Below, piece by piece: positions 6,116 to 31,721 of a DNA stretch of 64,000 nt. Below the pieces are notes generated by a model that was not told the origin of the DNA, did not search any database, and saw only the letters and a list, made by a program, of their open reading frames with translations. Positions within the stretch are counted from its first letter, which is position 1. Each line of letters opens with the position of its first letter. The DNA is from Candidatus Collierbacteria bacterium RIFOXYD2_FULL_45_13 (GTDB lineage: Bacteria > Patescibacteriota > Microgenomatia > UBA1400 > MFAQ01): the NCBI GenBank assembly GCA_001774685.1, contig MFAS01000001.1, positions 159,557-223,556 of the forward strand, written 5' to 3'. Both the position numbers and the translations under genes were made by a program.

Positions 6116-6119
6116 AATC

Positions 6120-8921: not shown

Positions 8922-8926
8922 CAAAA

Positions 8927-9286: not shown

Positions 9287-9287
9287 T

Positions 9288-9653: not shown

Positions 9654-9659
9654 ATATTT

Positions 9660-10366: not shown

Positions 10367-10428
10367 CAATTAAAAAATCATATATAATAGTCAGTAATAC
10401 GCATAACAATTATTAAAAAATAAAAAAC

Positions 10429-10770
10429 ATGTCTTTAATTCCTCAAGCATTGGCAGCAGCTGGCACCATCGGAGTTCCCCAACCGACAGGTATGAAGATC
10501 ACCGATATTGGCGTCCTTATCAGCCGTGTTATTTCTCTAGCTTTCATCGTTGCCGGTATTCTCACTTTCGCTTTTCTCGTCATGGGAGGCATTGAGTGGC
10601 TTACTTCCGGAGGAGACAAGGGCAAAACCGAACAGGCCAGAAATCGTATCACCGCCGCGGTTGTCGGTCTTGCGATCGTGGCTGCTTCCTGGGCTTTAAT
10701 GAAACTAATCGCCTATTTCTTTGGCGTTGATGTCTTCGAGGGAAACATCAACATCCCCAAACCCTACTAA
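10429..10770 (+). CDS. T4SS pilin-like protein, paralog
   Basis: Loop WLTSGGDKGKTEQARNRIT between two TM helices. Confidence 0.6.
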   Translation: MSLIPQALAAAGTIGVPQPTGMKITDIGVLISRVISLAFIVAGILTFAFLVMGGIEWLTSGGDKGKTEQARNRITAAVVGLAIVAASWALMKLIAYFFGVDVFEGNINIPKPY

Positions 10771-10798
10771 GAATTTAGTATTAGAAAAAAACAAATTA

Positions 10799-10818
10799 CC
10801 GCCGTCAGGCGGTTTTTT
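10799..10818 (+). terminator. rho-independent terminator after the pilin array
   Basis: ccgcc-gtca-ggcgg followed by TTTTTT. Confidence 0.6.
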
Positions 10819-10830
10819 GTATCCTTTTTT

Positions 10831-10861
10831 AACTTGAGTTTTTGAGTTCTTGAGTTTTTTT
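10831..10861. repeat. tandem TTGAGTTYT repeat (3 units), intergenic copy
   Basis: aacTTGAGTTTTTGAGTTCTTGAGTTTTTTT. Related copies lie at 8311..8342, 33907..33925, 44524..44561 and 53105..53131. Confidence 0.5.
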
Positions 10862-10879
10862 ACGATATAATTATTCTCA

Positions 10880-11236
10880 ATGACCCTTTCTTTCATTCCC
10901 CAAGCATACGCCGCCAGCAATTGGTCTGGAGAATGCGTTGGTCAAAATGTCGCTGGTGTGGACGCCACAGATGTGGCTTCTATCCAAGGAATTACCTGTT
11001 TGCTAAGAAACGTTCTTTCCCCTATACCAGCCCTCATTGCTCTTGCCGCCGTGGGCATCATTATCATGGCCGGCATTCGTCTAACTACTGCCGGATCGGA
11101 TCCCAAAGCAGTAGCTAGTGCTTGGAACATGTTCACTTGGGCCGTCATTGGTCTTATCCTGCTCTCCGCCGTGTGGCTGGCTCTTGTCCTTATCGAAAAC
11201 TTCACTGGTGCCAAGGTTACCCAATTCGGCATTTAA
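10880..11236 (+). CDS. T4SS pilin-like protein (divergent paralog)
   Basis: Signal-like N-terminus, then TM1 - loop TTAGSDPKAVASAWN - TM2. Confidence 0.5.
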   Translation: MTLSFIPQAYAASNWSGECVGQNVAGVDATDVASIQGITCLLRNVLSPIPALIALAAVGIIIMAGIRLTTAGSDPKAVASAWNMFTWAVIGLILLSAVWLALVLIENFTGAKVTQFGI

Positions 11237-11266: not shown

Positions 11267-14200
11267 GTGAAGAAACTTGTCTTATTATTGTTGTGTCTTT
11301 TTGTCTTTTATCTTTTTGGTGTCGACTCCATTTCCGCCGCCACTCCCACCCCAACCCCTACAGCCAACACCAGTCATACTCCCTCTGTTGATGCCGGTGT
11401 CGACGGCCCAAATCCCGCTCCACCAATTGGCATCCCTTGTGGAAAGACTGTTTGTTTGGAAGGTGAGGTTTGTACCAAGTTTCCTGGAGATGTTGATGAG
11501 CACTGTGTCCCGGATCCCATTCCCACCAACGCTGCCGGTGAAAAATTCAACCCTGTCCTTCCACCCCAATGTCCCGCAGGCACAGGGGTCTTCCCTCCCA
11601 ACAGTGTTTGTTGGAATGAAATCATCAACACCCAAACCTCTATCAGAGAGTACGACCACACCTGTATTTACGAACCCGTTGCCGAATACTCAGACGATCG
11701 CTGGTTAAACCGAGGCCCTCAACCTTTTAACCAGTGTGGTATCGGCGACTCCGGCCCGGGTGGCCCACCGGCACCGGGTGGCGACACCTACGAATGCGCC
11801 GTCAACATGCTTGTTTATACCGATGTCCGTGACGCGGAACTGGGTGGCTATGCGCCCAGCACCCTTGCCGAAGCTAGTTACTCGGCCGACTTCTTGGCAC
11901 AGAACTATCTCTACAATTCACTATTTGGACGACCTATGAATCTTTCCAGTAGTTACGACAAAAAGAACGCTGCTCTGAACAACGGCTATCCAACTCGGGA
12001 AGCATATCGAACTTATTGGCGTTTACTTCCGGCCGCCAACCAAGCCAATCTGCGCTCTTTTGTTATGAATTCTGCCCACGATGATCAAATGGATAATTTT
12101 AGTTTTAATTACATTGATTCCAATGGCATGAAAAAGTCCACCAGTTTCAAGAAACTTTTTGATGCTCTCAGCAAACAAGTAATCCTGTTTTGGCATTTTC
12201 CCTTTATCCGTATTGGCTGTCTCACTCAATATCCCGTCTGTCCGGAATACGCTCAGGCTATTCGGGAACTAAAACCGGTCTTTCAGGATATTAGAAATCT
12301 TGTTCGTGATCTCAATCTAGGTCCACTCGCTACGATTCCTATTGATATATACGAAGGCGCTATCTCCGCTTTTGGAGGAGATTTGGATGGACCATACGCC
12401 GCTTTTGTCCCTCTAGATTTTAATAGTATGCGCGGCTACATCCTCAAGAAAAAAGATACCAAAGAAGAATCCTATTATGAGACTTATTACGACGAACTCG
12501 TCGACGAGTACAATTCCGGCCGTTATGGCAGAAACAAACCTCTTTTAACCAATATTTCTTATGAACACCTTCCCTATCTTAGTGCCATCTACCAAGGACT
12601 TCTCTCCCCCAAGTTCGGTATGATCCCTGCTCTTCAACCCCAAGCAATCATCGATAAATGGGCTACAGAAAGTGGCATCTCGGATTATCGTGCCGGCAAC
12701 ACCCCTCTCACCATGCCGGAAGTCAGAATCGCTCAAAAGAACTTTCTTCAACGAATAGTCGACGAAGCAGTCGCAATCATTTCTGACCCACTTGGCTGGA
12801 TTGCCACCAACATTCTGGGGATTGGTACTCCGGAAGATTACAAAAAAGTTGGCTATACCGAGAACGGAACCGATAACCCCAGAGACAGGATCAGATCTGT
12901 CTACGACAATCCGAGGGGTTGCCCCTTACCCACTAGTTATCACCTCCTAGCCCCTAAAACAGTACCCATCTCCTTAGACGATCATCACCAGGTCATCACT
13001 ATTGAAGGCAAACGAGTCCAATGGGCCTACGACCCCATCTGTCAGCCACTCGAGCAACAAAAATGTGATAAAAATGGGCAGAACTGCACGACCGAATATA
13101 TCGACTGCCCCGTCAGCCCTGAAACTTATATTGAGGGTGGTATGTGCTGTACCAGACATTGGCAGGTCTCCGGTCGGGAACATGGCAAAGCACTTGATGT
13201 CTTAAACAATCCCAAACAAACCGATATTCGAGAAGTGGTCGCTGCTAATAATAGTTATTCCTTCTACAAAACAATGCTCCCGGCAGGGGCGTCCAAAATT
13301 ACCGACGCTGCTATCGACGCTTATGAAGCTTTTCACTTTGTCTCTTATAGCGACAGGGGGGGGACAGTAGAAGCCATCGGCCCAAACGACGGTGGTAGTT
13401 CATCAAAAGTATTAAACCCCGCCGAACCGGTCAACCGCATTGACAACTTCTCTCAAGATACCATACACATGTTACAAAACTGCTGGACCGTTCCCGAGAC
13501 TCTTCAAAACTCTCCTCGCTGCAAAATCGAGTTCCCTCCAGAGGCTACATCATCCAGCTCTCTTTGTGGCGGAGAAGCTTTCAAAAAAATTGACCCGAAT
13601 CCCGCCGCCCCCAGTGCCAAGGCCACTGACTTCTTTGTCTCCACCATTGAACCCACTCTCTCTGATGAAGTAATTTCGGCTTATGCCGAAGCCGAAAAAC
13701 AAACTGGCGTTCCTTGTGAAGTCCTAGCCGGTATTCACTTCGAAGAAGGTGATAATGATCCTAAAAAGGATCTCCAAAGTGGTGCCCCTTTAAACGGTCG
13801 GTCTTTAACCGAGTCTGCCGTCCAAGCCGCAGAAGAGCTCAAAGGCAAGGCCGGTGGCGATATTACATCCATGGACCAGCTCGCCATGGCCCTCTCCTAC
13901 TACAACGGTGGTGGTAATGCGAACTGTCAAGCCAGTAGTAGTTACAACTGCCCTTCCGCCACTTCTGACCAGTGTGGAATGACGGCTGCCTGTAGTACTA
14001 ATACTAGTGCTTGCACCTGCACCGGTACCGCCGAGGCCGGAAGCTGTCGCGCAGCATGTACTGCCGGCTTCCCCTATCAATTCAGTTATCCTTACTGTCC
14101 GCCCTCGAACATCGGCTACGACGACCCTTATGTCGTTAACTGGTGGCAGTCTCCTCAGCACGACGAAATGTACCTTCTTTATATGTACGACTGCACTCAG

Positions 14201-14275
14201 ACCAGACCTCAGATACATACCAGACCTGGTTCTCTTACTGTCGCCATCAATTTATTTCTTTCGGAAACAAAATAA
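11267..14275 (+). CDS. large secreted Cys-rich protein (1002 aa), unknown function
   Basis: - GTG start 7 nt after a TATAAT hexamer.
- Signal peptide MKKLVLLLLCLFVFYLFGVDSISAA followed by a TPTPTPT linker.
- Many Cys residues throughout.
- The C-terminal region (GVPCEVLAGIHFEEGDND...LSYYNGGG) might be glycoside-hydrolase-like, but that is speculative. Confidence 0.6.
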   Translation: MKKLVLLLLCLFVFYLFGVDSISAATPTPTPTANTSHTPSVDAGVDGPNPAPPIGIPCGKTVCLEGEVCTKFPGDVDEHCVPDPIPTNAAGEKFNPVLPPQCPAGTGVFPPNSVCWNEIINTQTSIREYDHTCIYEPVAEYSDDRWLNRGPQPFNQCGIGDSGPGGPPAPGGDTYECAVNMLVYTDVRDAELGGYAPSTLAEASYSADFLAQNYLYNSLFGRPMNLSSSYDKKNAALNNGYPTREAYRTYWRLLPAANQANLRSFVMNSAHDDQMDNFSFNYIDSNGMKKSTSFKKLFDALSKQVILFWHFPFIRIGCLTQYPVCPEYAQAIRELKPVFQDIRNLVRDLNLGPLATIPIDIYEGAISAFGGDLDGPYAAFVPLDFNSMRGYILKKKDTKEESYYETYYDELVDEYNSGRYGRNKPLLTNISYEHLPYLSAIYQGLLSPKFGMIPALQPQAIIDKWATESGISDYRAGNTPLTMPEVRIAQKNFLQRIVDEAVAIISDPLGWIATNILGIGTPEDYKKVGYTENGTDNPRDRIRSVYDNPRGCPLPTSYHLLAPKTVPISLDDHHQVITIEGKRVQWAYDPICQPLEQQKCDKNGQNCTTEYIDCPVSPETYIEGGMCCTRHWQVSGREHGKALDVLNNPKQTDIREVVAANNSYSFYKTMLPAGASKITDAAIDAYEAFHFVSYSDRGGTVEAIGPNDGGSSSKVLNPAEPVNRIDNFSQDTIHMLQNCWTVPETLQNSPRCKIEFPPEATSSSSLCGGEAFKKIDPNPAAPSAKATDFFVSTIEPTLSDEVISAYAEAEKQTGVPCEVLAGIHFEEGDNDPKKDLQSGAPLNGRSLTESAVQAAEELKGKAGGDITSMDQLAMALSYYNGGGNANCQASSSYNCPSATSDQCGMTAACSTNTSACTCTGTAEAGSCRAACTAGFPYQFSYPYCPPSNIGYDDPYVVNWWQSPQHDEMYLLYMYDCTQTRPQIHTRPGSLTVAINLFLSETK

Positions 14276-14886: not shown

Positions 14887-16674
14887 TTGACTATGCGATC
14901 GCTTCAAAAACATCTCAGCCTTATTTTTCTATTTCTTTTCACACTGACTTCAATTGTATTTGTACCTCAAGTCCGAGCCGCCACTTCTCCCACTACGAAC
15001 ACGTTTGGGGTACCCGGAGTCAAAACTCTTCAAGATTATGTCAAGGAGTTCTGTGATAAACGCTCCGGTGACTTGATGAACCTAGAAACCTGGTACTCCG
15101 GTAAATGTGGCCCGACAGTAGACACCCTTAGTGGTGACGGCGTGGGGTTTGTCGATATCGTTATCCTCCAAGGTATGGAGTGGGTCAATGCCCTAACCTT
15201 TAACTCACCAGGAGACAGTTATATTGATAGTGTCAAACGCCAGCTAGAATTCCTCCAAGCTATCAAGGACGCCCTTACTGCTTCCACCAACCAAACAAAT
15301 CTCAATGATATTGCCTTTATGTCCATTAAGGGAAGCGGCTTATTGGATTCTGCGGGCAGGGCAGTCGCGGGACTTGCCACCACCAGACCGGCTAGTTCTA
15401 TCGACTACGTTGCCTACGTATCCTCAAATCTTAGAAAACACAAAGTAATCGGTGATACCTATGCGGCCGGTCCGGGTTATGGCTTTACCGCTCTCGCCCC
15501 CATCCTTCCTCTCTGGCGTGCTTTCAGAAACATTGCCTACCTCTTGTTTGCACTCGGCTTCGTCCTCTACGGCATTATGATTATGTTCCGGGTCAAGATC
15601 GATTCAAAAACGGCCGCCACCATCCAGCTCGCCATACCCAAACTTATAGCCACTCTTCTGATGATCACTTTTTCTTACGCTATAGTTGGTTTCTTGGTCG
15701 ATATCTCCACCATCGCCGATGCCATGGCTATTAGTATTCTCCGAGCAGGCGGAATTCTCAACTCCAGCGGTTTTGGATCAAGTATCGGCAGCGGCCTTGT
15801 CGACGTCGTCAGTGGACAAACTATTTTCGGTGCCATTGGTTCTTTCCTAATCAACACCGTTACTGCCGTGATTATTTCCCCTTTCCTTTTTTTCAACCTC
15901 CTTCTTGGAGGTCTAGCAGGTATCATCGTCGCTGTATTCGTTTCCGGCTTAAGTATGATTACCGGACTGGGAATAATTGTCAGTATTATCATCATCATTG
16001 CCATTGCCATTTCTTATTTCAAGCTAATACTCAAACTTTTCCAAGCCTTCTTTGGTGTCATCATCAATCTTATTTTTGCCCCAATCATTCTATTGGGAAA
16101 TTTACTTCCGGGTTCCACTTCTTTCGGCGACTGGCTCAGAAGTATTTATGGCAATCTGGCCGTCTTTCCCGTCGCCATCTTTTTTCTTACTATGTCTTAT
16201 GCCCTAATGTGCCAACCACTCCTCTCTCTTGCAGGATCAGGTGGGCTACTCAGCGGTGTCATTACTGCCGGCCTAGAAAACCTGATTGGTGTCAACCAAC
16301 TCTCTACTCTTAGCAACATCTGGACACCACCCCTGACAATACCGGGAGGTCAATTCACCTCAGGTGGGGCAACTACTGGCACTGCCACAGGCAGTGTCGG
16401 CAGTCTCATGTTAGGAACTATCGGTTTTGGTCTTCTCCTTATGTCCAGTAAGTACTGTGAGATGGTCGAAAAGGCCCTCAAGACGCCTCCATTCCCCTAC
16501 GGCGCCGCCATCGGCGAAGCCCTCAAGACCGGAGTCAACCTGCAAGACAAGTGGGCTCAGAGCGGTTATAAACTACCTGCCGCAAAATACACTGCCCCAA
16601 TAAGCAGTTATCTACGAACAACCCCAGGACTCGAAGTTAAACCGACGGTCGACGCTCTCACAAAAGACGTTTAG
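14887..16674 (+). CDS. polytopic membrane protein, VirB6/TrbL-like candidate
   Basis: Signal peptide, then a soluble domain of about 190 aa, then at least 8 hydrophobic helices and a Gly/Thr-rich C-terminus. This architecture is typical of VirB6/TrbL/PrgH-like channel proteins. Assigned from topology and context. Confidence 0.45.
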   Translation: MTMRSLQKHLSLIFLFLFTLTSIVFVPQVRAATSPTTNTFGVPGVKTLQDYVKEFCDKRSGDLMNLETWYSGKCGPTVDTLSGDGVGFVDIVILQGMEWVNALTFNSPGDSYIDSVKRQLEFLQAIKDALTASTNQTNLNDIAFMSIKGSGLLDSAGRAVAGLATTRPASSIDYVAYVSSNLRKHKVIGDTYAAGPGYGFTALAPILPLWRAFRNIAYLLFALGFVLYGIMIMFRVKIDSKTAATIQLAIPKLIATLLMITFSYAIVGFLVDISTIADAMAISILRAGGILNSSGFGSSIGSGLVDVVSGQTIFGAIGSFLINTVTAVIISPFLFFNLLLGGLAGIIVAVFVSGLSMITGLGIIVSIIIIIAIAISYFKLILKLFQAFFGVIINLIFAPIILLGNLLPGSTSFGDWLRSIYGNLAVFPVAIFFLTMSYALMCQPLLSLAGSGGLLSGVITAGLENLIGVNQLSTLSNIWTPPLTIPGGQFTSGGATTGTATGSVGSLMLGTIGFGLLLMSSKYCEMVEKALKTPPFPYGAAIGEALKTGVNLQDKWAQSGYKLPAAKYTAPISSYLRTTPGLEVKPTVDALTKDV

Positions 16675-16717
16675 ATAGAATACCGCCACCTTCCTGTTTT
16701 GTTCCTAAAAAACTATT

Positions 16718-19537
16718 TTATAGAATTAGGTCTTTTTTCGCTCTATTCCAATAAGTCTCTGGAAACACCATCTTATTATCAAGTTTTTCAGCTCTTATCG
16801 ACTTCCTGGCCAGTTCAACAATTGCTGCCGTAGCGTGTACACCACTACCCCACCATGCCGGATAATCCTTCGGTTTAAAGTCATTAGCCAATGCGACGAT
16901 CACGCTAAAACAGTTCTTCCAAAGATGGTCCACATAATTCACATATTCCCTTTTGTTCGCTAGAAGAGGTTCTGATTTTTCCGTTGACTTCCCATCCCAC
17001 AAATAAGCTTTTACTTCAGGGGTCTGCACGTCGGTCGCTAATACCTGTTCGGCTTTTTCTGCTAGCTTCTTCATATCCCAGGGCTGTTGATTTTTGAAGT
17101 CAGCAACCGAATGTGCATGTAAGAAAGATTCGCAAGCGGTCAACATTGTCATTGAGACCCATTCATCTACACTTTGCCACTGACCATTAAAGGAAAATTC
17201 TGGCGGAATCATATCCTTCTCATTTACGATTCCAGCTGCCTTCATCGAGGTCTTCCAATGCACAATACATTTTGTTTTTAAGGCTCCCAATTTATCTATA
17301 TCCGATTCTGGCTTCAGGGCTTCTTTCAAGGCTACCAAAAGATCCAAAGCTGTCTTCATTTCCTCTATTCTTGACTCCGTGTCTGTTGCAATTTGAACCT
17401 TCCCTGATTCAGTCACAGCTTGTATCAAACTCTTCCATTCTTTGTCTTTTTGCTTTTCAAGTAATTTTTGGGCCTCTGATTTAACAGAATCTTCTGCAAC
17501 CCTACCTTTAGCCCCCATCACCACTCTGGCTTTCTTTCTTTCATATACCGCGATAACTTCAGCCTTTGTCCATTTCACAACCACACCGTCGACTTCAAAA
17601 CCATGGTTTGCAATCCTTATCCATTCATCTCCATTAGTTTCAAAGGTTACGTCGATTGCTCTCTGAGCCCCAGTATACAAGTTTTCCTGTACTCTCCACT
17701 TGAGCCATTCTCCAGCTTCGAGAGCTCTATCCCCACCATTCGATAGACCGGTTGGCACCAAATGGCTTGGGAAATGTTTTGACAACCAAACTTCAATTTC
17801 ATCTTGACTCGGTTTTCTACCATAGTTTGCCATTTGAAACTGAACAAAAGCTTGTGCTGTTTTTTCCCTATCGACAGCGACATCTCTCGATTTACGTCTC
17901 TTTGTGTCACCATGAACCATCAATAGGAACGGGTCTAAACTTGTCCCCTTTGTGTCGGTGGCCATTAGACTAGACATCAACATGGCAAAAGCAACTTCTC
18001 CAACATACCTATTCAAACCCAATTTCTTATATAACTCGGCTTTCTTTTCCGCCGCCACAGCCACATATCCGTCCCAATAGTCATTATTATCAAAAAAATT
18101 CTTGAGTTTAAGCATTGCCTTGCTTATCTCTATCTGTATATTCTTTGGACCAGCTTCCCCGGGAAGCATCATCATGTTATCACCCAACCGGTTTCCATCT
18201 TTGTCATATTTACCTTCAAATGCCAGTTCCGTGTACTTTGGAACAAACAGAGAGGAGTTTAGTCTGGCAGAGGTAATGTCCTCAAGACCTTTTAGCTTAT
18301 CCCATTCAGAAACAACGTTCTTAATGCTAATAAAGTTGTCTAGACTCATTTCTTCAACAATCCTTTGTACTTCCTCATTTAATAAAGGCACCTGCTCCAT
18401 CGGAATACCCATTTTTGTAGCCAATAACCCCTGCGGACCAAAAAATGAGCCACTAATGGATCTTTCGTTCGTCATTCCCAAGTCAAAGATACTATCCAAA
18501 CAATATTGCCTGATCGCATCCGCCTGAGATGGTGTTAACTTCAATTCAAAATCAATTACTTCCTGAACTCTGGCAACATCATCTGGAGATACACCCGGTT
18601 TCCCTCCAAAATCTCTCATCCACCGCAAAGCGGCTTCCTTTTGCTGTTTAATATTACCCATAAAAAAGGCCGGATTGATTACTTGTTCCAAACGTTCACT
18701 GGCGCCTTGCAAATTAGTTTGTGTCTGTAATGCCAATTCTGGTGACTCAAGCTTTTCTTCTACCAATTTAAGTATTCCAGCAGGAGCAAGACCTTTCACC
18801 ATTTCTCTCCGTAAATTCTCAAGGGCTTGTCTTTTGCTACCCAACGAATACCCATCGATAATGACCAAAGTGTCGTCTAATTTTTTTTGCCATTTGTTCA
18901 CAGGAGCGGCTTCATCGACGGGAATTGTTGGTTCAGACTCTATATCTCCGCCTGCTGACAGTACTACATCCACCCCTAAAGGAACATCAAGTCTAAGCGT
19001 TTTCTCCATAAAATCTTTTTGTTCTGCGGAAATTGCACCGTCCTTCAAAGACTCAGCCAAATCTCTTATTTTTTCTTTTCTTTCAGCAATTCTCTTTCTG
19101 CCATCTTGAGTTGCAAAACTTAAATCTCTGTTCAGGATAAAATCTAAATCTGCTCCATCCTCTCTTAGTCTTCTGATTGCGCCTAATCTTTCTCGTACTT
19201 TGTCCTGTTTCTCCGCAGCAGTTTTCCCCAAAGTGGCAAGTCGTAGATCCTCTGCAATCTCAGCTGCTTCCCGAATACCTTCTCCAACTTCCACAGCTCG
19301 CACTGGAGTACCCACCGGCTCCGGCAAAACTACAGTTCCCTTCAAAATAGAGGCCATTTCTGCCTGAGTACCCGGATCAGTCAGACTCTCTGCAATTTCC
19401 ATCACATCTGCATTAGTATCGTCTTCTTTCCAAGATATTCTCATTTCTCCAAGATTCTTTTGTGCCAAAGGATCGCCGGCTCTAGCCTGTTCGATCAACT
19501 TTGCCTGCATCGCCACCATTTTTTCGCTATGTTCCAT
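16718..19537 (-). CDS. large uncharacterised protein (939 aa), cytoplasmic, highly charged
   Basis: Uninterrupted 2.8 kb ORF with no signal peptide, TM helix or recognisable motif. In an operon with the 658-aa ORF (39-nt spacing). Confidence 0.6.
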   Translation of the reverse strand: MEHSEKMVAMQAKLIEQARAGDPLAQKNLGEMRISWKEDDTNADVMEIAESLTDPGTQAEMASILKGTVVLPEPVGTPVRAVEVGEGIREAAEIAEDLRLATLGKTAAEKQDKVRERLGAIRRLREDGADLDFILNRDLSFATQDGRKRIAERKEKIRDLAESLKDGAISAEQKDFMEKTLRLDVPLGVDVVLSAGGDIESEPTIPVDEAAPVNKWQKKLDDTLVIIDGYSLGSKRQALENLRREMVKGLAPAGILKLVEEKLESPELALQTQTNLQGASERLEQVINPAFFMGNIKQQKEAALRWMRDFGGKPGVSPDDVARVQEVIDFELKLTPSQADAIRQYCLDSIFDLGMTNERSISGSFFGPQGLLATKMGIPMEQVPLLNEEVQRIVEEMSLDNFISIKNVVSEWDKLKGLEDITSARLNSSLFVPKYTELAFEGKYDKDGNRLGDNMMMLPGEAGPKNIQIEISKAMLKLKNFFDNNDYWDGYVAVAAEKKAELYKKLGLNRYVGEVAFAMLMSSLMATDTKGTSLDPFLLMVHGDTKRRKSRDVAVDREKTAQAFVQFQMANYGRKPSQDEIEVWLSKHFPSHLVPTGLSNGGDRALEAGEWLKWRVQENLYTGAQRAIDVTFETNGDEWIRIANHGFEVDGVVVKWTKAEVIAVYERKKARVVMGAKGRVAEDSVKSEAQKLLEKQKDKEWKSLIQAVTESGKVQIATDTESRIEEMKTALDLLVALKEALKPESDIDKLGALKTKCIVHWKTSMKAAGIVNEKDMIPPEFSFNGQWQSVDEWVSMTMLTACESFLHAHSVADFKNQQPWDMKKLAEKAEQVLATDVQTPEVKAYLWDGKSTEKSEPLLANKREYVNYVDHLWKNCFSVIVALANDFKPKDYPAWWGSGVHATAAIVELARKSIRAEKLDNKMVFPETYWNRAKKDLIL

Positions 19538-19576
19538 TATTTTTGAAAAATATATCTAATCTCAGCCTCAATTATA

Positions 19577-21553
19577 TCACCCGAGACCCAATAAGCGTGC
19601 GTAGGCACCAGCTATCTTCGTCATTGCCGGGAACTCAGCTCTTTTTGCCTCGCTCATCCTCCAAACCTCTACTACTGCTCTAAGTTGCATCATCAGGTCC
19701 TTAGATTTACCTGGAGCAGCTTTCTCCATATCCGTCAAGAACTTCCTTATTTTTATCCCCTCAGCCTCGAGTGAAGCAAGAACAGGCTCCTTTGCCCCTT
19801 CGTCAACCAGCTCAGATAGTTGAATTAACATATTTTCAACACTAACTTTTTTGTTCTCTTTACTTTCAACCACAGGCCTAGCTTCAACAGCTTTCATTCC
19901 CTTTGCCTCCTCCGAATCCGGCAGATATGGAACCCCACCCTCTCTAATTTTCATTCTTTTTAACCACTCGACAATCTGTTCCCTATTTTCCCACTTTATC
20001 GAAGTACCTTCTAGTTTATATGGATACGTTACCTCTTTGTCAGACAACAACAACTCCGCTGCGTTTCTCAACCATTGTCTATTTTGATATGCTTGTTCCA
20101 TACTTGGGTCAAAGGAAATACTCGGTATATCAGCTCCCCGACGTATAAGATATTGTCTGATTTCTTCACTCCTCGCGGGATCTGTCCCTAAAACAGTAGC
20201 AGCTACTATATCCCCCAAGATGCCGTCATACCAAACTAAATTATCATTTTTCTCTCCCTCTTTGGTTCCTGTTTCCTCATCTATCCCATGCCCCTGTCCA
20301 AGACGTTTTTTAATCTCACCGTATAGCATCATCCATTTATAAAATTTCTCTAAGTTATTTCCTAAAAATACTTTTAGGTCTTTACTCATGGAAGCAATGT
20401 CATAATTTTCAGATTGTCTCTGAATTTCTGCTATAAGTTTTTGTATCTTTTTTCCTTCAACACCTCCAAGGTCTTTAGAATAAACTATCCCTAGTGTTGA
20501 AACATCAACTTTCGTATCTACGCCGATTACATTCAGATTGTACCCTCTACTTATTAGTCTCCTCACAGCCGCCAATCTCTCCGCATCACCAAACCGTAAA
20601 TCTCCCAACTGCTGGCGCATACTCTCATTCATGGGAACATTACCCAAGATCTTCAAAGCGGGAACCGGATCAACAAAAGAGGATTCGTCGCTAATCCTTA
20701 ACTCTGCCTTATCAACAATTCCGATATTTGTTATAGATGCTGTCTCTTTGAGCAGAGAATCTGCTGATGTTTGCTTCTCATCCGCCGGATGCTCACCTTT
20801 TTGTAGCAACATTCTCCGCGCTTCCCTCAAATCTTCTAGGTTAACTCTCGATTCAGATATGAGCGAAGTGTTTTCTTTCCAATCCAAAGGCTCTTCTGTT
20901 TCCAGATTCAAATATTTTTGTATCTCCAGCGTCATCCTTCGCCCATCCTCAAATCTCCTAACCGGCTTCCCTTCGCTACCAGCTCTGTCACTGGGTTTTG
21001 TCAACCACTTAATATGGAATTTCTTTATCCTTTCTTTTGCACCATTCCAAGCTTCAGGCGAAGCACTAACTTCATTTCTTTCTGGGTAAATTATCTTCAG
21101 GTCACCAACAAGTTGTGTTGCATAATATTCTGCACTATCAGCTTCCTTTGTCTCAGGCGCTCTATCAAATTCTTTAACTTCTGAGGTTATCACTCGTGGA
21201 GAACCAGTCTTTATTTCTACAGTACGGACATCACTACCACCCGTATCTGACATCACAACTTCAGCTATTCTTTGGCCGCCCTTTTGGCTACCTGTTTTTT
21301 CAACCACTTCCGGAATATCCTTATCTTCTTCGGCCAGGCTTCGCAAAGAAACCTTCTTTTTGTCAGGTTTTTTCTTTGTTGGAGCTATATTTCTAGCCTC
21401 CTCTTCTATCCTTAATCTCTCGGCTTTTGCTTCTTCAGATTCTACTAAGCCTTTTGGAACATCAGCCACCACAGATTGCCCTCCACTAGATTTTTCCAAT
21501 ATTTTTTTAAATCTATCTAATCGTGATTGTGTCGGTTCACTTGCTGGTGGCAT
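19577..21553 (-). CDS. large uncharacterised protein (658 aa), cytoplasmic, Lys/Glu-rich
   Basis: Uninterrupted ORF with no signal peptide, TM helix or recognisable motif. Divergently arranged from the PrgI-like gene. Confidence 0.6.
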   Translation of the reverse strand: MPPASEPTQSRLDRFKKILEKSSGGQSVVADVPKGLVESEEAKAERLRIEEEARNIAPTKKKPDKKKVSLRSLAEEDKDIPEVVEKTGSQKGGQRIAEVVMSDTGGSDVRTVEIKTGSPRVITSEVKEFDRAPETKEADSAEYYATQLVGDLKIIYPERNEVSASPEAWNGAKERIKKFHIKWLTKPSDRAGSEGKPVRRFEDGRRMTLEIQKYLNLETEEPLDWKENTSLISESRVNLEDLREARRMLLQKGEHPADEKQTSADSLLKETASITNIGIVDKAELRISDESSFVDPVPALKILGNVPMNESMRQQLGDLRFGDAERLAAVRRLISRGYNLNVIGVDTKVDVSTLGIVYSKDLGGVEGKKIQKLIAEIQRQSENYDIASMSKDLKVFLGNNLEKFYKWMMLYGEIKKRLGQGHGIDEETGTKEGEKNDNLVWYDGILGDIVAATVLGTDPARSEEIRQYLIRRGADIPSISFDPSMEQAYQNRQWLRNAAELLLSDKEVTYPYKLEGTSIKWENREQIVEWLKRMKIREGGVPYLPDSEEAKGMKAVEARPVVESKENKKVSVENMLIQLSELVDEGAKEPVLASLEAEGIKIRKFLTDMEKAAPGKSKDLMMQLRAVVEVWRMSEAKRAEFPAMTKIAGAYARLLGLG

Positions 21554-21682
21554 CTCACTCTCATCTTAACATTTTCACCCTTCAGACATATACAATATTT
21601 TTCCCAAATCTCACCAGACACGATATACTTAACTAGACTCATCGAACCAGCAACCAACAACTTAAGAACTTCTCACCAAGAC

Positions 21683-22600
21683 ATGGCCATTCAACAACAT
21701 CCACTACCGCAAGACATCAGCTCCTATCGCTTTCGCTTGATCGGTGACATGACCATCAAGCAGTTCGCTTCGCTGGGTATCTCCATTGTTGTTGCCGTCA
21801 TTGTTTATAGCCTTCCCTTACCCTTCTTTTTCAAATACCCGCTCTCTTTTATCTTTATCGTTCTCGGAGTCGGTATGGCTTTTGTTCCTGTTCAGGGACG
21901 CTCCTTAGATGTCTGGATCCTCGCCTTTATCCGTTCCATCTATTCCCCTACCCAATATGTCTGGAAACGCTCCAAGGATATTTCCGAAGAGATGACACTC
22001 CCCACCGGACCTCTTGTGGGAACTCAAGCGGTGTCCAACGCCAGAATAGAGCTCACTACCGCTTCACCAAACGCTCCGATTGTCTCCATTACCCCCGCTT
22101 CCGCTCCCCAAGCTCCGACTCCATCAATCTCTACGGAGCCCCCCCTTGTCGCTCCATCAACCTCTCCTGTGTCGATCACCCCCCCACCGGTTTCTCCTGT
22201 CCAAACAGAACAACCTCTTTCTGTACCCTCTTCACATCCAATATCTGATTCCACTTTAAACCCTACGGCCACGGCGACAACAACCAGCCTCTCTGCACCA
22301 ACCACTCCCCAAGTCGCCCAGCTTCCAATTCCTTTCACCCCCACCACTCCCAACACCCTTGTTGGTTTGACTCTTACACCCGAAGGAAAAATACTTGACG
22401 GAGTTCTGGTAGAAATTCAACACAATGGCCTTACTTCTCGAGCCACCAAAAGTAACAAACTCGGTCAGTTTATGTTTGCCCGTCCTCTGGAAAATGGCCT
22501 CTATCAAATCCTGGCCGAAAAAGAAGACTATACTTTCTCCCCCTATTCTCTAGATCTTACTGGCGAAATTATCCGACCTCTCAAAGTACAAGCAATCTAA
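21683..22600 (+). CDS. PrgI/VirB3-like membrane protein with Pro/Thr-rich linker and C-terminal carboxypeptidase-regulatory-like beta domain
   Basis: N-terminus PQDISSYRFRLIGDMTIKQFASLGISIVVAVIVY plus a second TM helix resembles PrgI-family (VirB3-analogue) proteins that precede VirB4 in Gram-positive-type T4SS. The C-terminus GKILDGVLVEIQHNGLTSRATKSNKLGQFMF...GLYQI is CarbopepD_reg-like. The start is chosen at the ATG at 21683. Confidence 0.45.
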   Translation: MAIQQHPLPQDISSYRFRLIGDMTIKQFASLGISIVVAVIVYSLPLPFFFKYPLSFIFIVLGVGMAFVPVQGRSLDVWILAFIRSIYSPTQYVWKRSKDISEEMTLPTGPLVGTQAVSNARIELTTASPNAPIVSITPASAPQAPTPSISTEPPLVAPSTSPVSITPPPVSPVQTEQPLSVPSSHPISDSTLNPTATATTTSLSAPTTPQVAQLPIPFTPTTPNTLVGLTLTPEGKILDGVLVEIQHNGLTSRATKSNKLGQFMFARPLENGLYQILAEKEDYTFSPYSLDLTGEIIRPLKVQAI

Positions 22601-22602
22601 AC

Positions 22603-23253
22603 ATGCCTGAAAACATCAAGTCATCGACCCAGGAAAGTCTCGATATTTACACTATCAAAAATCATCTTGTCTTTTTAAAAGACGGCTCTTGTTCGCTTGT
22701 CCTAAAAACTACAGCTATCAACTTCAATCTGCTTTCCGAAGAAGAGCAAGATGCCACTATCTATGGCTATGCCGGCTTACTGAACTCACTCTCTTTCTCT
22801 ATACAAATTCTTATCCGATCTCAACGAAAAAATATTTCCGATTATATTAATTTGTTAGACAATCGTATTCAGATTACTCCATCTCAAAAAGTCAAAGAGC
22901 AACTTCTTTCCTACCGTCAATTTGTCAAATCTCTCGTCAAAGAAAACCGTGTTCTGGAGAAAAAGTTTTATGTCATCGTTTCCTTTTCGGCTATCGAATT
23001 GGGTGTCACCAAATCAACCTTTAATCCCATGGCCAAAACCACCCAAAAACCTCCTTTTGACATCTCCTACATTGAAGAAAAAGCTTCGATGGCTCTCTAT
23101 CCTCGGCGCGATCACATTATTCGTCAGTTCGCTAGAATCGGACTCAAGGCCAGCCAGCTCACCACAAGCGAATTGGTGACTTTGTTTTACACTATTTATA
23201 ATCAAGGCAGTGTCACTCAGGCCATCACCCCGGGCAGATCCAACGCCTCCTAA
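22603..23253 (+). CDS. VirB4 N-terminal domain encoded as a separate ORF (split VirB4, part 1)
   Basis: LDIYTIKNHLVFLKDGSCSLVLKTTAINFNLLSEEEQDATIYGYAGLLNSLSFSIQILIRSQRK follows the N-terminal pattern of VirB4/TrbE proteins: (I/L)..hhhLkDGS....h.h.Gh.F.l...E......Y..LL. Recalled from Agrobacterium VirB4 and TrbE. Confidence 0.5.
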   Translation: MPENIKSSTQESLDIYTIKNHLVFLKDGSCSLVLKTTAINFNLLSEEEQDATIYGYAGLLNSLSFSIQILIRSQRKNISDYINLLDNRIQITPSQKVKEQLLSYRQFVKSLVKENRVLEKKFYVIVSFSAIELGVTKSTFNPMAKTTQKPPFDISYIEEKASMALYPRRDHIIRQFARIGLKASQLTTSELVTLFYTIYNQGSVTQAITPGRSNAS

Positions 23254-23282
23254 AACCTGTCGTCTTCAGTTATACTTAATTC

Positions 23283-25175
23283 ATGGCTTTGAACCTTTTT
23301 TCTCTTGGCAAAAAACAAAGCGTACCGCCTGCTACTGCACCTGTCTCTACACCGGTTCCTAACGTTACATCAACAAACTCTTCTTCCGTCGATCAAAAAT
23401 CTGCCGCCTCCAGTCAATCCATCCAAGATATTATTGCCCCCTCTGCCGTTGAAGTCGATTTTTCTCATATCAAAATCGACGATGTCTATATCCGCACCCT
23501 CTTCGTCACCGGCTACCCTCGCTATGTCTCCGCCAACTGGTTATCCCCCCTGGTCAACTTCAATCACTCTTTAGACATTTCCATGTTTGTCTACCCTTCA
23601 GATTCCAAGGATACCTTAGAGAGTCTCAGGAGACGCATCGCCGAGATGGAAGCGGAAATTAATACCGATATCGAACGAGGCCGCATCCCCCGTGCCGCCA
23701 CCGAAGCGGGCTTGGAAGACGCTAAAGTTCTCCAATCACAGCTGGTCAAGGGAGCCGAAAGATTTTTCCAGTTCTCTCTATATATCAGCATCTCCGCTGA
23801 TTCCGAAAAAGAACTAAACACCTCCACCGCTCAGATTCAGTCCATGTTGGCTTCTCTCTTGATTATCAGCAAAATTGCTTCCCTCTCTATGGAAGATGCT
23901 TTCAAAAGCACCCTTCCTTACTGCAAGGACAAGCTGATGTTAACGAGAAATATGGACACGACGGCTCTCTCTACTACTTTTCCTTTTACTTCCTCAGAAC
24001 TTTCTGATAACCAAGGGATTCTTTACGGCGTCAATGCCCACAACGACTCCCTGGTTATCTTCGACCGTTTCTCTCTGGAAAATGCCAACATGCTGATACT
24101 GGCCACTTCCGGTGCCGGCAAGTCATACGCTGTCAAGCTCGAGATCCTTCGCTCTCTGATGTTCGACTGTCAAGTCATTATTCTCGATCCTGAAAACGAG
24201 TATGAGATGGTCACTAAGTCTGTCGGCGGCAACTATCTCTCTTTTTCTACCAGCTCTCAACACAAAATTAATCCTTTCCAGATAGCCCGCCCCAAAGAAA
24301 GTACCGAAGATGAAATGGGTTATAAATATCTTTTTCTCATGTCTCTCCTCAAGATCATGATTGGCCAGATGGACCCTATCGAAGAGGCTACTATGAATAG
24401 GGCTCTCGTCCTGACCTATCGTCAAAAAGGCATTACCGAAGACCCAGCCACCCATACTCTCGAACCACCTCGCATGGAAGATCTTTATCGCTCTCTTATT
24501 GGTATGGAAGAATCAGTCAGTAAAACATTGGCCGCCAGACTCGAGCGGTTTGTCATGGGTGCCGTCAAGGGAATTTTCGACCAGCAAAGCAATATTGACA
24601 TCAACGCTCCCATCACCGTTTTTACTCTTCGAGATACCGCCGATGAGATTCGGCCCATCATCATGTTTATGATTCTGGACTTTGTCTGGAATGAAGTGCG
24701 AAAAAATCTTCGCAAAAGAATGCTTGTCGTCGATGAGGCCTGGTACCTCATGCGTTACGAAGACTCTGCCAAAATTCTTCAGGGCTTCGTTAAACGCGCA
24801 CGTAAGTATTACTTCGGTGTATCTATCATTTCTCAGAACGTTGATGACTTTCTTGGTTCGGCTTATGGTAAAGCCATTATCACGAACTCCGCCCTCAAAC
24901 TACTCCTCAAACAGTCATCCGCTGCCATCAACCAGATCTCCGAAGTTTTCTATCTTTCTCAAGGCGAAAAACAACTATTACTTTCGGCCGGAGTCGGAGA
25001 GGGTATTTTCTTTGCCGGTATGAACCACGTCGCCATCAAAATTATTTCCTCCGCCGATGAACATGCCTTAGCCACCAGTAAGCCTGCAGAAATTTTGGAA
25101 AGACAGAAACAAGAAAAAGCCCAAGCAGCCGCCGAAGCCGCTTCCCAAATACAACCACAGCTAAGTAATTCCTAA
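23283..25175 (+). CDS. virB4: VirB4/TrbE/PrgJ-family T4SS ATPase (split VirB4, part 2)
   Basis: DIIAPSAVEVDFSHIKIDDVYIRTLFVTGYPRYVSANWLSPLV...DISMFVYPSD matches the Gram-positive VirB4 (Orf16/TcpF/PrgJ) middle-domain pattern. Walker A is ILATSGAGKSYAVK and Walker B is RMLVVDEAWYLM. The start codon is directly preceded by TATACTTAATTC. Confidence 0.8.
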   Translation: MALNLFSLGKKQSVPPATAPVSTPVPNVTSTNSSSVDQKSAASSQSIQDIIAPSAVEVDFSHIKIDDVYIRTLFVTGYPRYVSANWLSPLVNFNHSLDISMFVYPSDSKDTLESLRRRIAEMEAEINTDIERGRIPRAATEAGLEDAKVLQSQLVKGAERFFQFSLYISISADSEKELNTSTAQIQSMLASLLIISKIASLSMEDAFKSTLPYCKDKLMLTRNMDTTALSTTFPFTSSELSDNQGILYGVNAHNDSLVIFDRFSLENANMLILATSGAGKSYAVKLEILRSLMFDCQVIILDPENEYEMVTKSVGGNYLSFSTSSQHKINPFQIARPKESTEDEMGYKYLFLMSLLKIMIGQMDPIEEATMNRALVLTYRQKGITEDPATHTLEPPRMEDLYRSLIGMEESVSKTLAARLERFVMGAVKGIFDQQSNIDINAPITVFTLRDTADEIRPIIMFMILDFVWNEVRKNLRKRMLVVDEAWYLMRYEDSAKILQGFVKRARKYYFGVSIISQNVDDFLGSAYGKAIITNSALKLLLKQSSAAINQISEVFYLSQGEKQLLLSAGVGEGIFFAGMNHVAIKIISSADEHALATSKPAEILERQKQEKAQAAAEAASQIQPQLSNS

Positions 25176-25177
25176 CC

Positions 25178-27709
25178 ATGGCCAATCACGAACAGGACAT
25201 CTATGATCTTGGACAGGTTCAAAAATATTTTCCAAAAAAATTAGAGGATCTTTCAGAACAAGAAAGAGCAGAGGCCTTACGACTTTTCAGTATAGGAGCT
25301 GGGTTTTATAACCAGTTTTTTCGAAAAGGTTCCGGTCACAAAGTAACCCCCTATACTTTTCAAAAAGAAGCCTCACCGGACGAAATTCAGCAAATCATAA
25401 ATTATTTGTCGAAAGAAGAGGAGGAGGAAACCAAAAAAACCAAAACTCCGGCCAAAGAAGAGTCGTCGGTTCCACCGGAGATCGAAGGTCTTGTCGAAGA
25501 ATACCGTCAAAATCAAGAACGTCTAAACGAAGAAGAGGTCAAATCCAGTGGTCAACGCACCGTCGCCGAACAAGTCAAAATTGCTCTCTCCCACTCCAAA
25601 ATCCGTGAGCAAATTATGGCCAATCGCCGAGAACGTGAAGCCGCAGGTGAAAAGTTTCAAGACCCAAACGAAGTAATCGTTAATCTGGGAGATCCAAAAA
25701 GCCAGAGTATCAACGCTGTTCTTTCCACCACCAAAAAAGCCATTGACTCTATCGCTTACACGTATCCTGGTTTTTCTTCTCTCTCAACTTCAGTTCAAAG
25801 ACAGGTCATCAACGATGCTGTTGACCTAAGTTTAGCTGGTATTGATGATTTAGACGTCGCTATTCAAACCGCCTCCATCCAACTAGGTGTTGATAGGATT
25901 CCCTCTAGCTACATTTCTGAGGTAGCTCGTGAGCTAAGTGATATAGAGAAAGATTCCGAAGAGCTGGAAGAAAGTCTTTCACAAAACGAATATGCCATTG
26001 ACAGTTTAAAAGCTAAAACCACACTATCTGACTCGGAACAACAGCAGTTAAATAAACTTCTTAAAGAAAATAACATTCTCACCTCCGGACTTAACAAGGC
26101 TTCTACCCGTTTCATCGATTTTGTCGATTCACAGAATGAAAGATATGGTCAATATCTTGCCGAAAAAAGGGACCACCTCAGAACCAACCCGGATCTGGAT
26201 GAACTTACCCTTGCCGCAAACACCAAAAGAGACAATCTTCACGAAAATCTTCTCAAAAACGGAGTTACTCCTAGAGGTTTTTCCGATCTGGACAAAATTG
26301 CCGGTTTGGTCACCGTCATTCAAAAAGACATTCCTGGCCTTCATCAATATGCCAGTTACGAAGGAGCTCAAGCCGCCGCCATCATTGGAGGAGGTCAGGG
26401 CCAGGCAATACTGGCCTATTCCAAAGGAGTCACCGGTGGAGTACTACGCCAAGCGGAAAAATATGCCGCTGCTAATCCCAATTCTGCTACAGCCAAATTT
26501 CTCGCCAACAATACTAAGGTTTTTCAAGCCGCCAGACGCTCCATTCGTGAAATAGAAAATTCCAAACTTGGAAAAGATGTTCTTCAGGCAGTCAGTAAGG
26601 GCAATCAAATCATCGGTATCGTCACCAATCCAGTCGGCGCTCTCAAACAATGGGCCGGTCAAAAAGCCGGCGAACAAATAGCTAAGAGGTTGGTTGAAAG
26701 ATTCGGGAGTGAGGCTCTCAAGAATGCCGCCAATCTGTTGTTGAAGGAGGGTCTCAAAGATGGAGTCAAAAAGCTAGCCTCTCAAGCTCTATCCAAAGTG
26801 GCTATCAAAGTTGCTACATGGGCGGCTTTAAAGTTAGGAATCAGTCTTACTGCCGAATCTTTGAACGCTATCATGCCCGGGCTAGGAGTTATTGTCGACA
26901 TTGTTGTTCAAGCCGTAATATATATCGCCGAAAAAACTATTGGTGCTGGCTATCAAGCCATGCAAAGTACGGCTAGAGAAATCTGGGGAGAGGAACTCAA
27001 ACCCCGCGATTTACTCGCTCCTCTGGCAGCATTGGGTGGACTCGCGGTTGCTCTATTTGGTACATTGAAGGCTGCTCAAAGAACCGCCCAAATAGCTGTA
27101 GTATCCGCCGCAGGTATCGTTATAGGATCTGTCAGTATTCTGTTAATTTATCTTTCTCTCGCCTTCCTAATTGCCCCCATGCTTTCCGCTTTGGTGCAAC
27201 TTGATAGTTTGGAGAAGGTTAAGTATTCCGAATATGCCGCGCCAGTCACCGCTACCAACTGTTCCAACGTACCTTGGCCCTTTTCAGACACTCATCCAAT
27301 TACACAAGGCCCTCGTCAAACAACTACCAGTTGTACCCACGCCGGCGACATCGCAGAATCTGCTGATTTCAGTGTCACTGTCGGAACTCCTATATTAAGC
27401 ATTTTCTCCGGAAAGATCGACTTCGCCGGATGGAGCGATGATGGCTATGGAAACAATGTTAAAATGACGGCAACCACCGACACGGGCACAAGCTTTACTG
27501 TCATTTACGGTCACTTCTCCAAAGTTTCAGTGACTACAGGTAGTACTGTTCAAGTTGGAGCTCAGTTGGGCTTATCGGGAAGCACTGGCTACAGCACAGG
27601 CCCTCATCTCCATCTCGGCTATCGTGGTATCGAATACAACTCGTGTCCTGCTGGCAATTTTAGAATTAACGAAAACTGTTGCACAACCGATACTTGCAAT
27701 CAGCCATAA
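25178..27709 (+). CDS. membrane protein with C-terminal M23 (LytM-type) peptidase domain; candidate T4SS cell-wall hydrolase (VirB1 analogue)
   Basis: C-terminus HAGDIAESADFSVTVGTPILSIFSGKIDFAGW...GYSTGPHLHLGYRGIEY carries the M23 HxxxD and HxH motifs. Two or three TM helices precede it around residues 600-660. The N-terminal region of about 600 aa is cytoplasmic and coiled-coil rich. Confidence 0.7.
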   Translation: MANHEQDIYDLGQVQKYFPKKLEDLSEQERAEALRLFSIGAGFYNQFFRKGSGHKVTPYTFQKEASPDEIQQIINYLSKEEEEETKKTKTPAKEESSVPPEIEGLVEEYRQNQERLNEEEVKSSGQRTVAEQVKIALSHSKIREQIMANRREREAAGEKFQDPNEVIVNLGDPKSQSINAVLSTTKKAIDSIAYTYPGFSSLSTSVQRQVINDAVDLSLAGIDDLDVAIQTASIQLGVDRIPSSYISEVARELSDIEKDSEELEESLSQNEYAIDSLKAKTTLSDSEQQQLNKLLKENNILTSGLNKASTRFIDFVDSQNERYGQYLAEKRDHLRTNPDLDELTLAANTKRDNLHENLLKNGVTPRGFSDLDKIAGLVTVIQKDIPGLHQYASYEGAQAAAIIGGGQGQAILAYSKGVTGGVLRQAEKYAAANPNSATAKFLANNTKVFQAARRSIREIENSKLGKDVLQAVSKGNQIIGIVTNPVGALKQWAGQKAGEQIAKRLVERFGSEALKNAANLLLKEGLKDGVKKLASQALSKVAIKVATWAALKLGISLTAESLNAIMPGLGVIVDIVVQAVIYIAEKTIGAGYQAMQSTAREIWGEELKPRDLLAPLAALGGLAVALFGTLKAAQRTAQIAVVSAAGIVIGSVSILLIYLSLAFLIAPMLSALVQLDSLEKVKYSEYAAPVTATNCSNVPWPFSDTHPITQGPRQTTTSCTHAGDIAESADFSVTVGTPILSIFSGKIDFAGWSDDGYGNNVKMTATTDTGTSFTVIYGHFSKVSVTTGSTVQVGAQLGLSGSTGYSTGPHLHLGYRGIEYNSCPAGNFRINENCCTTDTCNQP

Positions 27710-27714
27710 CGATT

Positions 27715-31597: not shown

Positions 31598-31721
31598 ACG
31601 CCCATTCTCACTACTTATCCACATTTTTACAACCCCCAATTTACCCAAAAAGAATAATACTATCCACATCACCTCCTTTGAGGGTATAATGTCCTGTTCC
31701 CATCAATGTTAAAATAATCAT

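Follow-up and report, generated by a model that had tools for sequence, protein, structure and literature searches.

The type IV secretion systems (T4SSs) of Patescibacteria have, according to three reports, no known role or substrate and generally lack relaxases (PMC12102498, PMC11665869, PMC12857230), and their transported substrate has been called 'completely unknown' (PMC11665869). In Southlakia epibionticum, the only species so tested, epibiotic growth requires the T4SS (Wang et al. 2023, cited in PMC12102498, Quinonero-Coronel et al. 2025). The present analysis concerns a locus of this kind in a stretch of 64,000 nucleotides from Candidatus Collierbacteria bacterium RIFOXYD2_FULL_45_13 (contig MFAS01000001.1, positions 159,557 to 223,556), which is called the window, and in particular two large proteins, A and B, encoded antisense to the T4SS genes. 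Their open reading frames (ORFs) lie between g595, the gene of a 595-amino-acid (aa) membrane protein on the left, and the gene of PrgI on the right. The antisense ORF or ORFs found at this place are termed the slot, and the slot ORF facing g595 encodes the A-position protein. The slot is filled in every relative in which both of its borders are present, its contents are exchanged as a cassette, and the A-position protein is tentatively proposed to be a polymorphic cargo of the T4SS, with the tail of g595 as its docking site.

The surrounding T4SS is of the known kind. Like the system of Patescibacteria, which is derived from the mating-pair formation class FATA (MPF-FATA; PMC12102498), it has VirB4, a TrsD-like protein, PrgI/VirB3, VirB2-like pilins and a peptidoglycan hydrolase, and it lies in proximity to dnaN and dnaA. 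Annotation of the locus at the level of Pfam and NCBIfam revealed no relaxase. In the sections consulted, the survey dedicated to these systems (PMC12102498) mentions neither an antisense polymorphic slot, nor families of soluble orphan proteins, nor a VirB6-like protein whose tail co-varies with them. A search of one literature library found no paper joining Collierbacteria and type IV secretion.

Parallels to the slot itself are offered by polymorphic effector systems, such as LXG proteins of the type VII secretion system, Rhs/PAAR proteins of the type VI secretion system, CdiA-CT and the X-Tfe proteins of the Xanthomonas T4SS with their XVIPCD. The slot proteins resemble these effectors in the lack of a signal peptide, the encoding within a secretion locus, the combination of a common trafficking-type region with variable payloads and the exchange between close strains. 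They differ in having neither a recognisable toxin domain nor an adjacent immunity gene, and the swapped unit is a whole gene with the tail of the neighbouring membrane protein, not just a C-terminal tip. The XVIPCD of X-Tfe proteins is C-terminal, whereas the common region of the slot proteins is N-terminal.

A second parallel is entry exclusion, in which a variable segment of a VirB6-family protein is matched by a type-specific partner, as in TraG (VirB6-like)/TraS of F-like plasmids and TraG/Eex of the SXT/R391 integrative conjugative elements. The tail of g595 is likewise a short variable segment of a VirB6-family candidate that co-varies in an allele-specific manner with a partner gene of the same locus, with linkage as a possible cause. 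The putative partner is not a small inner-membrane protein but a soluble one of 630–1070 aa. A third parallel is given by the VirB/D4 substrates (VirE2, VirE3 and VirF of Agrobacterium, the Beps of Bartonella), whose positively charged C-termini are the export signal. As a group, the A-position proteins are similarly acidic, with the last 20 residues net positive above controls, but they have no sequence similarity to these substrates, the A of the window itself reaches just +1, and the only gene resembling a type IV coupling protein (T4CP) in the window lies about 29 kb away and is fused to NUDIX.

Occupancy and exchange of the slot

Relatives, denoted here by L numbers, were gathered via VirB4 in species-representative genomes and via TrsD in metagenomes, and occupancy was counted over the loci with both borders (29 genome-derived and 34 metagenome-derived). 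The relatives found via VirB4 place the source organism among Collierbacteria-like Microgenomates, and its genome also occurs in groundwater metagenomes (ERZ27254748, SRR4389122, SRR2090174). All 63 hold at least one antisense ORF of at least 631 aa between g595 and PrgI, convergent with g595, and this occupancy persists across TrsD identities of 49–96%. The A-position proteins are soluble and have isoelectric points (pI) of 5–6. By their C-terminal 450 aa, the 51 unique A-position proteins fall into 11 core clusters, four of which are major: type I (n = 21, including the window), type III/IV (n = 8), type V (n = 8) and type II (n = 6). Roughly half of the loci, spread over several core types, have another large antisense ORF besides the first.

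The N-terminal part behaves differently from the core. One N-terminal cluster holds 38 of the 51 proteins and spans all four major types, and 97% of the high-scoring segment pairs (HSPs) between types end within the first 350 aa. In the window, residues 96–258 of A give BLAST HSPs to type III/IV proteins, and the N-terminal profile of A matches L027, L073, L011 and L015. The profile of the A core (residues 290–939) finds none of the other slot types. A single 'A family' for all A-position proteins, built by transitive BLAST and iterated hidden Markov models (HMMs), was withdrawn, as the links ran through the N-terminal modules; this is apparent because the core-only profile misses the other slot proteins. 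Types I and II are remotely related (hhalign probability 83%, E = 9e-6, 312 collinear columns), and all other pairs stay below 3%. The core types may represent alleles of a single gene that have diverged to an extreme degree, or genes without common origin. What is conserved is the slot and its architecture, not the sequences of A and B themselves. The first-pass annotation had named absence from otherwise syntenic T4SS loci as evidence against a role in secretion: B is indeed absent from about half of them and the core of A is replaced by other types in about 60% of the unique A-position proteins, yet the slot is never empty.

In distant Microgenomates (L024, L026, L028, L049 from the complete Woesebacteria genome CP055308, L054, L130, L145 and L154), the slot holds a soluble acidic antisense ORF of 640–990 aa. 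These ORFs are unrelated in sequence to A and B, and to one another except for the L049/L054 pair.

Nucleotide comparisons indicate that the slot is exchanged as a cassette between close relatives. When the window is compared with L089, L091 and L093, similarity always ends at 16526 and resumes at 21556–21614, and the window's cassette takes in the last 48 or so codons of g595. In L017/L027 the breakpoints are also sharp; similarity is lost some 45 codons short of the g595 stop and returns immediately 5' of the slot gene start. L017 and L047 are 86–98% identical to L027 in every other gene of the locus (synonymous divergence, dS, 0.4–0.84), and only 23–25% identical in the slot proteins; genomes whose VirB4 is 98% identical can thus have slot proteins at no more than about 25%. 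In the closest genome pair, L017/L047, the slot gene, which is not of the window's type, is 94% identical with a ratio of nonsynonymous to synonymous divergence (dN/dS) of 0.13, which indicates that it is functional and under purifying selection. Across relatives, slot identity tracks VirB4 identity weakly (Spearman 0.28), pairs with VirB4 at 95–100% have slot identities of 23–94%, and the core types are distributed patchily over the VirB4 clades. For the tabulated relatives, identity to the window is about 77–95% in TrsD and VirB4 and 50–92% in dnaN/dnaA, as compared with 2–49% in A and 0–20% in B.

Architecture of A, B and the g595 tail

The two ORFs, of 939 and 658 aa, were placed by the first-pass annotation between the VirB6-like and PrgI/VirB4 genes, and its coordinates proved exact. 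They are spaced by 39 nt and both start with ATG; public gene callers choose later starts, leading to proteins of 933 aa (A) and 631 aa (B). The maximum hydropathy over 19 residues (Kyte-Doolittle) is 1.04 in A and 1.31 in B, as compared with more than 2 in the membrane neighbours, and hydropathy analysis found no signal peptide or transmembrane (TM) helix in either protein, as had been stated before. The earlier description of both as highly charged also stands, with 29.8% charged residues and a pI of 5.4 for A, and 33.5% and 5.8 for B. The coiled-coil-like stretches ascribed to them were not recovered: neither protein has a run of 35 or more residues free of Pro and Gly, and the model of A consists of many helices, the longest of which, in the confident model, has about 30 residues.

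This model was obtained with AlphaFold2 from an alignment of 27 sequences and is mostly helical, with a mean predicted local distance difference test (pLDDT) score of 81.5, a predicted template modelling score of 0.66 and residues from about 290 to 939 mostly above 90 in pLDDT. It superseded a run on a 3-sequence alignment (pLDDT 44). Foldseek, which had been proposed as a check of remote homology, found no neighbour of the A model in PDB or BFVD. Relatives of A are found with E down to 1e-268. A word-indexed search of 5.8 billion proteins returned three matches for A and only the self-match for B, and the A profile, run exhaustively with HMMER against 1.84 billion representatives, matched 34 proteins. 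In the window, A has a core that is novel and seldom found. Three remote matches of the A profile were checked for context: one lies in a full slot, one is convergent with a 606-aa g595-like gene, and the contig of the third, at 3.7 kb, is too short for its context to be read, so that no A-type match in an unrelated context was seen among the three.

Searches of Pfam, NCBIfam, PADLOC and PDB sequences gave nothing significant for A, B or any relative, in line with the first report that no motif could be recognised, and tblastn against annotated phages and plasmids found nothing. No homology to a housekeeping family, which would have spoken against a role in secretion, explains A or B. Matches to DUF4252, KH_5, MAT1 and DpsA at E > 0.01 were discarded as chance, as was a match to TcdA_TcdB_pore in 1 of 27 A-family members (E 0.0045); the PADLOC match of B to pAgo (E 0.0028, 13 bits) was discarded as noise. 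The expression for Walker A has no match in B and one in A, at residues 844–851 (AYLWDGKS), which is considered a chance match because it lies in a loop of low pLDDT and the relatives have GKD; the previous statement that both proteins lack a P-loop is therefore upheld. An HUH-like string, HAH at A residues 807–809, was set aside since H.H is unconserved among the relatives (HEN in L001, YTH in L004 and L051). Invariance across the 27 A-family members is confined to S810 and P819, and a search for a conserved catalytic set of His, Tyr, Asp or Glu among them found none. The marks of a relaxase, a His triad or HUH with a catalytic Tyr and a family match in Pfam or NCBIfam, are thus missing.

The second protein, B, is an accessory partner with a mosaic sequence. 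Residues 137–247, 333–403 and 415–658 each match different B-position proteins, and the C-terminal 240–270 aa are common to the positional orthologues, with alignments of about 260 aa at 48% identity to L062 and 37% to L015. The extreme C-terminus, ending in LGL, is the best conserved part of the B-position proteins, and its last 77 aa are kept between L001 and L004. No whole-protein homology links A and B (hhalign probability 0.5%). A module of about 60 aa, the WY module, occurs in B proteins and also in the N-terminal part of the A-position proteins L001, L037, L020 and L072 (domain E 1e-15 to 1e-22).

The left border, g595, is putatively VirB6-like, as judged from its position and its topology of about seven hydrophobic segments; it has no Pfam match. 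Its C-terminal tail follows the type of the slot. Between pairs from different VirB4 clades, the tails are 32% identical where the slot type is the same and 22% where it differs (p = 8e-6), whereas the g595 body shows no effect of slot type across VirB4 clades (p = 0.26). The type I tail motif N..WA[KQ].GY is kept where A itself is down to about 30% identity. The cassette ends exactly at the slot start codon on the PrgI side, but inside g595 on the other side, and this asymmetry makes the inclusion of the tail look more than accidental. As a slot swap leaves all other genes of the machine unchanged, type-specific contact is probably limited to the g595 tail.

The C-terminus of the A-position proteins is also characteristic. 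The mean net charge of their last 20 residues is +2.45, while the controls, 216 ORFs encoding soluble acidic proteins, average -0.44 (p = 1e-6), and a net charge of +4 or more is reached by 45% of them versus 1.9% of controls. Basic tails are present too in five positional analogues without detectable sequence similarity (L024, L026, L028, L049 and L054).

Candidate roles of the slot proteins

These features can be combined as follows. A and B would be the contents of a polymorphic cassette of the Patescibacteria-type T4SS locus in Collierbacteria-like Microgenomates. The A-position protein would be made in the cytoplasm, with helical N-terminal modules common to the types, a type-specific core and a usually basic C-terminal tail, and would be a dedicated strain-specific cargo, or effector, of the T4SS. 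The matching tail at the C-terminus of the g595 channel protein would be its docking site, from which it would be exported towards a host or competitor cell and then act there; B, which has modules in common with the N-terminal region of A-position proteins, would be an optional second cargo or a targeting partner. Such a polymorphic cargo docking on the g595 tail is the preferred explanation, though held tentatively and with less than even confidence. It is preferred because of the common N-terminal region, the polymorphic core, the cassette exchange under purifying selection, the tail co-variation and the basic C-terminus. Three roles had been suggested from position: translocated effectors, docking or chaperone components, and a substrate-recruitment module. 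Cassette exchange, the N-terminal region with type-specific cores, the basic tails and the co-variation with the g595 tail fit the effector and docking end of this range.

A further proposal makes the A-position proteins the first candidates for substrates of a Patescibacteria T4SS and a new polymorphic effector class, in which an N-terminal modular targeting region is joined to large novel-fold cores, each matched to an exchangeable g595 docking tail. This is doubtful and, taken as a whole, unlikely; if true, one cassette swap would re-programme which host or competitor an ultra-small epibiont exploits. The always-filled, exchanged slot of soluble proteins of unknown fold provides concrete cargo or specificity candidates for the Patescibacteria T4SS, and leads to the pairwise prediction that a cognate A binds its cognate g595 tail. 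The slot may also serve as a genetic marker where Collierbacteria strains that are otherwise near-identical differ in host range.

Several points weigh against an exported cargo. No core type has any Pfam match, and no toxin or enzyme domain is recognisable. No cognate immunity gene lies 3' of A, where a gap of 43 nt leads directly to the stop of the convergent g595. As to the C-terminal T4SS signal, which had been proposed as a test, basic tails are seen in the A-position proteins as a group, but in the window both A and B end with a net charge of just +1. The A-position gene is present exactly once per locus and is never absent, which resembles a machine component more than a repertoire of effectors. 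Some of the tail co-variation could stem from the physical linkage of adjacent genes, and by the hydropathy of g595 the tail may lie on either side of the membrane. Finally, T4SS loci of the Saccharibacteria and WWE3 types are without an equivalent of the slot.

With strictly one gene per locus and no signature of a toxin or of immunity, another explanation comes close behind that of a cargo. Here, the cytoplasmic A-position protein would bind the g595 tail without being secreted and would act as a specificity or gating component, that is, a gate, a regulator or a self/non-self determinant of the exclusion type. Kin discrimination or inhibitor pressure, not host targets, would be the force behind its diversification. 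The constant convergence with g595, the allele-specific co-variation with its tail and the cassette border inside g595, opposite one at a start codon, would all agree with such a component, and the TraG/TraS and TraG/Eex pairs serve as precedents. However, known exclusion proteins are small and membrane-bound, the other machine genes are unchanged by the slot swap between L017 and L027, which would limit any tight structural integration to the g595 tail, and the basic C-terminal tails and common N-terminal modules are left unexplained. A role of this kind is possible but on balance somewhat unlikely.

A recombination hotspot is a less probable explanation. The slot would be a variable island between two T4SS operon blocks, and A and B would be lineage-specific cargo with another function. 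The slot genes are transcribed separately from the opposite strand, and plainly unrelated genes are found at the B/PrgI junction: the toxin-antitoxin pair BrnT/BrnA (L004:6225-6798), AbiEii with an AAA_14/DUF4143 ATPase (L012:6156-8128; PADLOC PDC-S01) and CTP synthase (L006:6552-8237), to which a 562-aa ORF at the same spot in L051 (6554-8242) is linked by BLAST. L089 (2508-3119, 7682-8781) has AbiEii at this junction and a PEMT/ICMT-like methyltransferase adjoining g595 on its side. Because the PrgI-side junction takes such insertions elsewhere, the earlier wording 'embedded inside' the T4SS locus was too strong, although A and B are tied to this locus. A mere hotspot is difficult to reconcile with a large soluble antisense ORF in every locus across the whole range of TrsD identities, with an N-terminal region common to the types and with a g595 tail that co-varies with them. 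The type I core is moreover very rare and was not seen in an unrelated context (of the three checked matches, two adjoin g595-like genes and one is on too short a contig), and searches of PADLOC and of annotated phages and plasmids brought up no relatives. The hotspot is thus regarded as improbable.

A nucleic-acid-processing module, standing in for a relaxase, primase or other DNA- or RNA-handling activity missing from the T4SS, would suit the size and cytoplasmic nature of A, its HAH string and the suggestion that very divergent relaxases may exist where most Patescibacteria T4SS clusters miss them (PMC12102498), but is highly improbable, as H.H is unconserved, the 27 members share no catalytic set, the proteins are acidic and swaps between types without detectable core similarity are hard to square with a conserved enzymatic job.

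Further features of the locus

Table 1. Features of the slot and its surroundings in the window (positions count from the first nucleotide of the window).
Feature	Position	Strand	Evidence
Protein A, 939 aa, soluble acidic A-position protein, core type I	16718..19537	-	ORF, AlphaFold2 model
A core, residues ~290-939, type-I-specific, mostly helical	16721..18670	-	AlphaFold2 pLDDT mostly >90; core profile
A N-terminal module region, residues ~60-290, common to other core types	18668..19360	-	BLAST, N-terminal profile
C-terminal 20 residues of A	16721..16780	-	net charge +1
Protein B, 658 aa, soluble, mosaic accessory, upstream of A	19577..21553	-	ORF, mosaic similarity
WY module in B, residues 438-492 (LVWYxxILxDLxxAT...RLxxxG)	20078..20242	-	module HMM
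Conserved C-terminal region of B, residues 415-658, ends in ...LGL	19580..20311	-	identity to B-position proteins
g595, polytopic membrane protein with signal peptide, convergent with A	14887..16674	+	about 7 hydrophobic segments; always flanks the slot
Tail of g595 (residues 548-595), following the conserved PPFPYGAAIGEALK motif	16528..16671	+	tail comparison
Variable cassette: g595 tail, A and B	16527..21555		nucleotide similarity breakpoints vs L089, L091, L093
Divergent intergenic region, B to the likely true PrgI start	21554..21683		sequence; follows genomic backbone, not cassette
Machinery block: PrgI (VirB3-like), TrsD/TraC-like, VirB4-like ATPase	21684..25175	+	Pfam and NCBIfam matches

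To the right of the slot, the + strand carries the genes for PrgI, the TrsD/TraC-like protein, the VirB4-like ATPase and the M23 peptidase, and then dnaN and dnaA (28719-31672). PrgI matches PF12666 at 5.5e-9. The TrsD-like gene (22603-23253) matches the NCBIfam TrsD and VirB4 N-terminal models with scores below the curated cut-offs, and its orthologue is annotated with PF26593, TraC-like. Directly downstream of these two genes, the VirB4-family ATPase (23283-25175) matches P-loop_TraG at 2.8e-26 as well as CagE_TrbE_VirB. The left flank comprises a pilin-like array (8601-11236), a secreted Cys-rich 1002-aa protein, a 235-aa protein with a single TM segment and g595. The array consists of seven small ORFs with two TM segments each, orthologous to the T4SS_pilin genes (PF18895) of L001. 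With VirB4, the PrgI/VirB3-like and TrsD-like proteins, the VirB2-like pilin array and the proximity of dnaA/dnaN, the locus has the composition of a Patescibacteria-type (MPF-FATA-like) T4SS. Its soluble proteins are A, B, VirB4 and TrsD only; all others have a TM helix or a signal peptide.

The mechanically called PrgI ORF begins with the TTG at 21527 and so has 27 nt in common with the start of B. Its orthologues are about 60 residues shorter, which makes the ATG at 21684 the likely true start and leaves a divergent intergenic region of 130 nt. This region contains one sigma-70-like match on the + strand (21601-21629), and promoter and terminator scans gave matches no commoner than in shuffled sequence. 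The Rfam matches in the window are a tmRNA (673-1088, +, 98 bits) and one tRNA (61093-61164, -), with no others.

Other proteins of the locus, namely the M23 protein, g347 and g1002, are likewise fast-evolving. The M23 protein (25178-27709) has a long soluble N-terminal part and three TM segments, followed by the M23 domain; it is hypervariable among genomes with about 90% identical VirB4, with 32% identity between the copies of the window and L031, for example. The 347-aa protein with a single TM segment (27679-28722) and the secreted 1002-aa protein (11267-14275, 33 Cys) are also hypervariable, and the locus therefore contains several variable modules.

The T4CP-like gene mentioned above, the only one seen within the window, encodes a 1143-aa protein (50554-53985, +) with TrwB_AAD_bind and TraG-D_C domains and a C-terminal NUDIX domain. 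Two more small pilin-like ORFs (144 and 133 aa; 5681-6479, +) with weak similarity to the pilin array sit about 2 kb upstream of it, with prenyl-transferase genes between. The VirB4 of several close relatives is extended to 1100-1220 aa by an intein (Intein_splicing and LAGLIDADG_3) right after the GKS of Walker A, corresponding to position ~24120 of the window. Such a VirB4 is found in L089 (10680-14066), L061, L064, L065, L072, L075, L090-L094 and L143, while the VirB4 of the window (630 aa) is intein-free.

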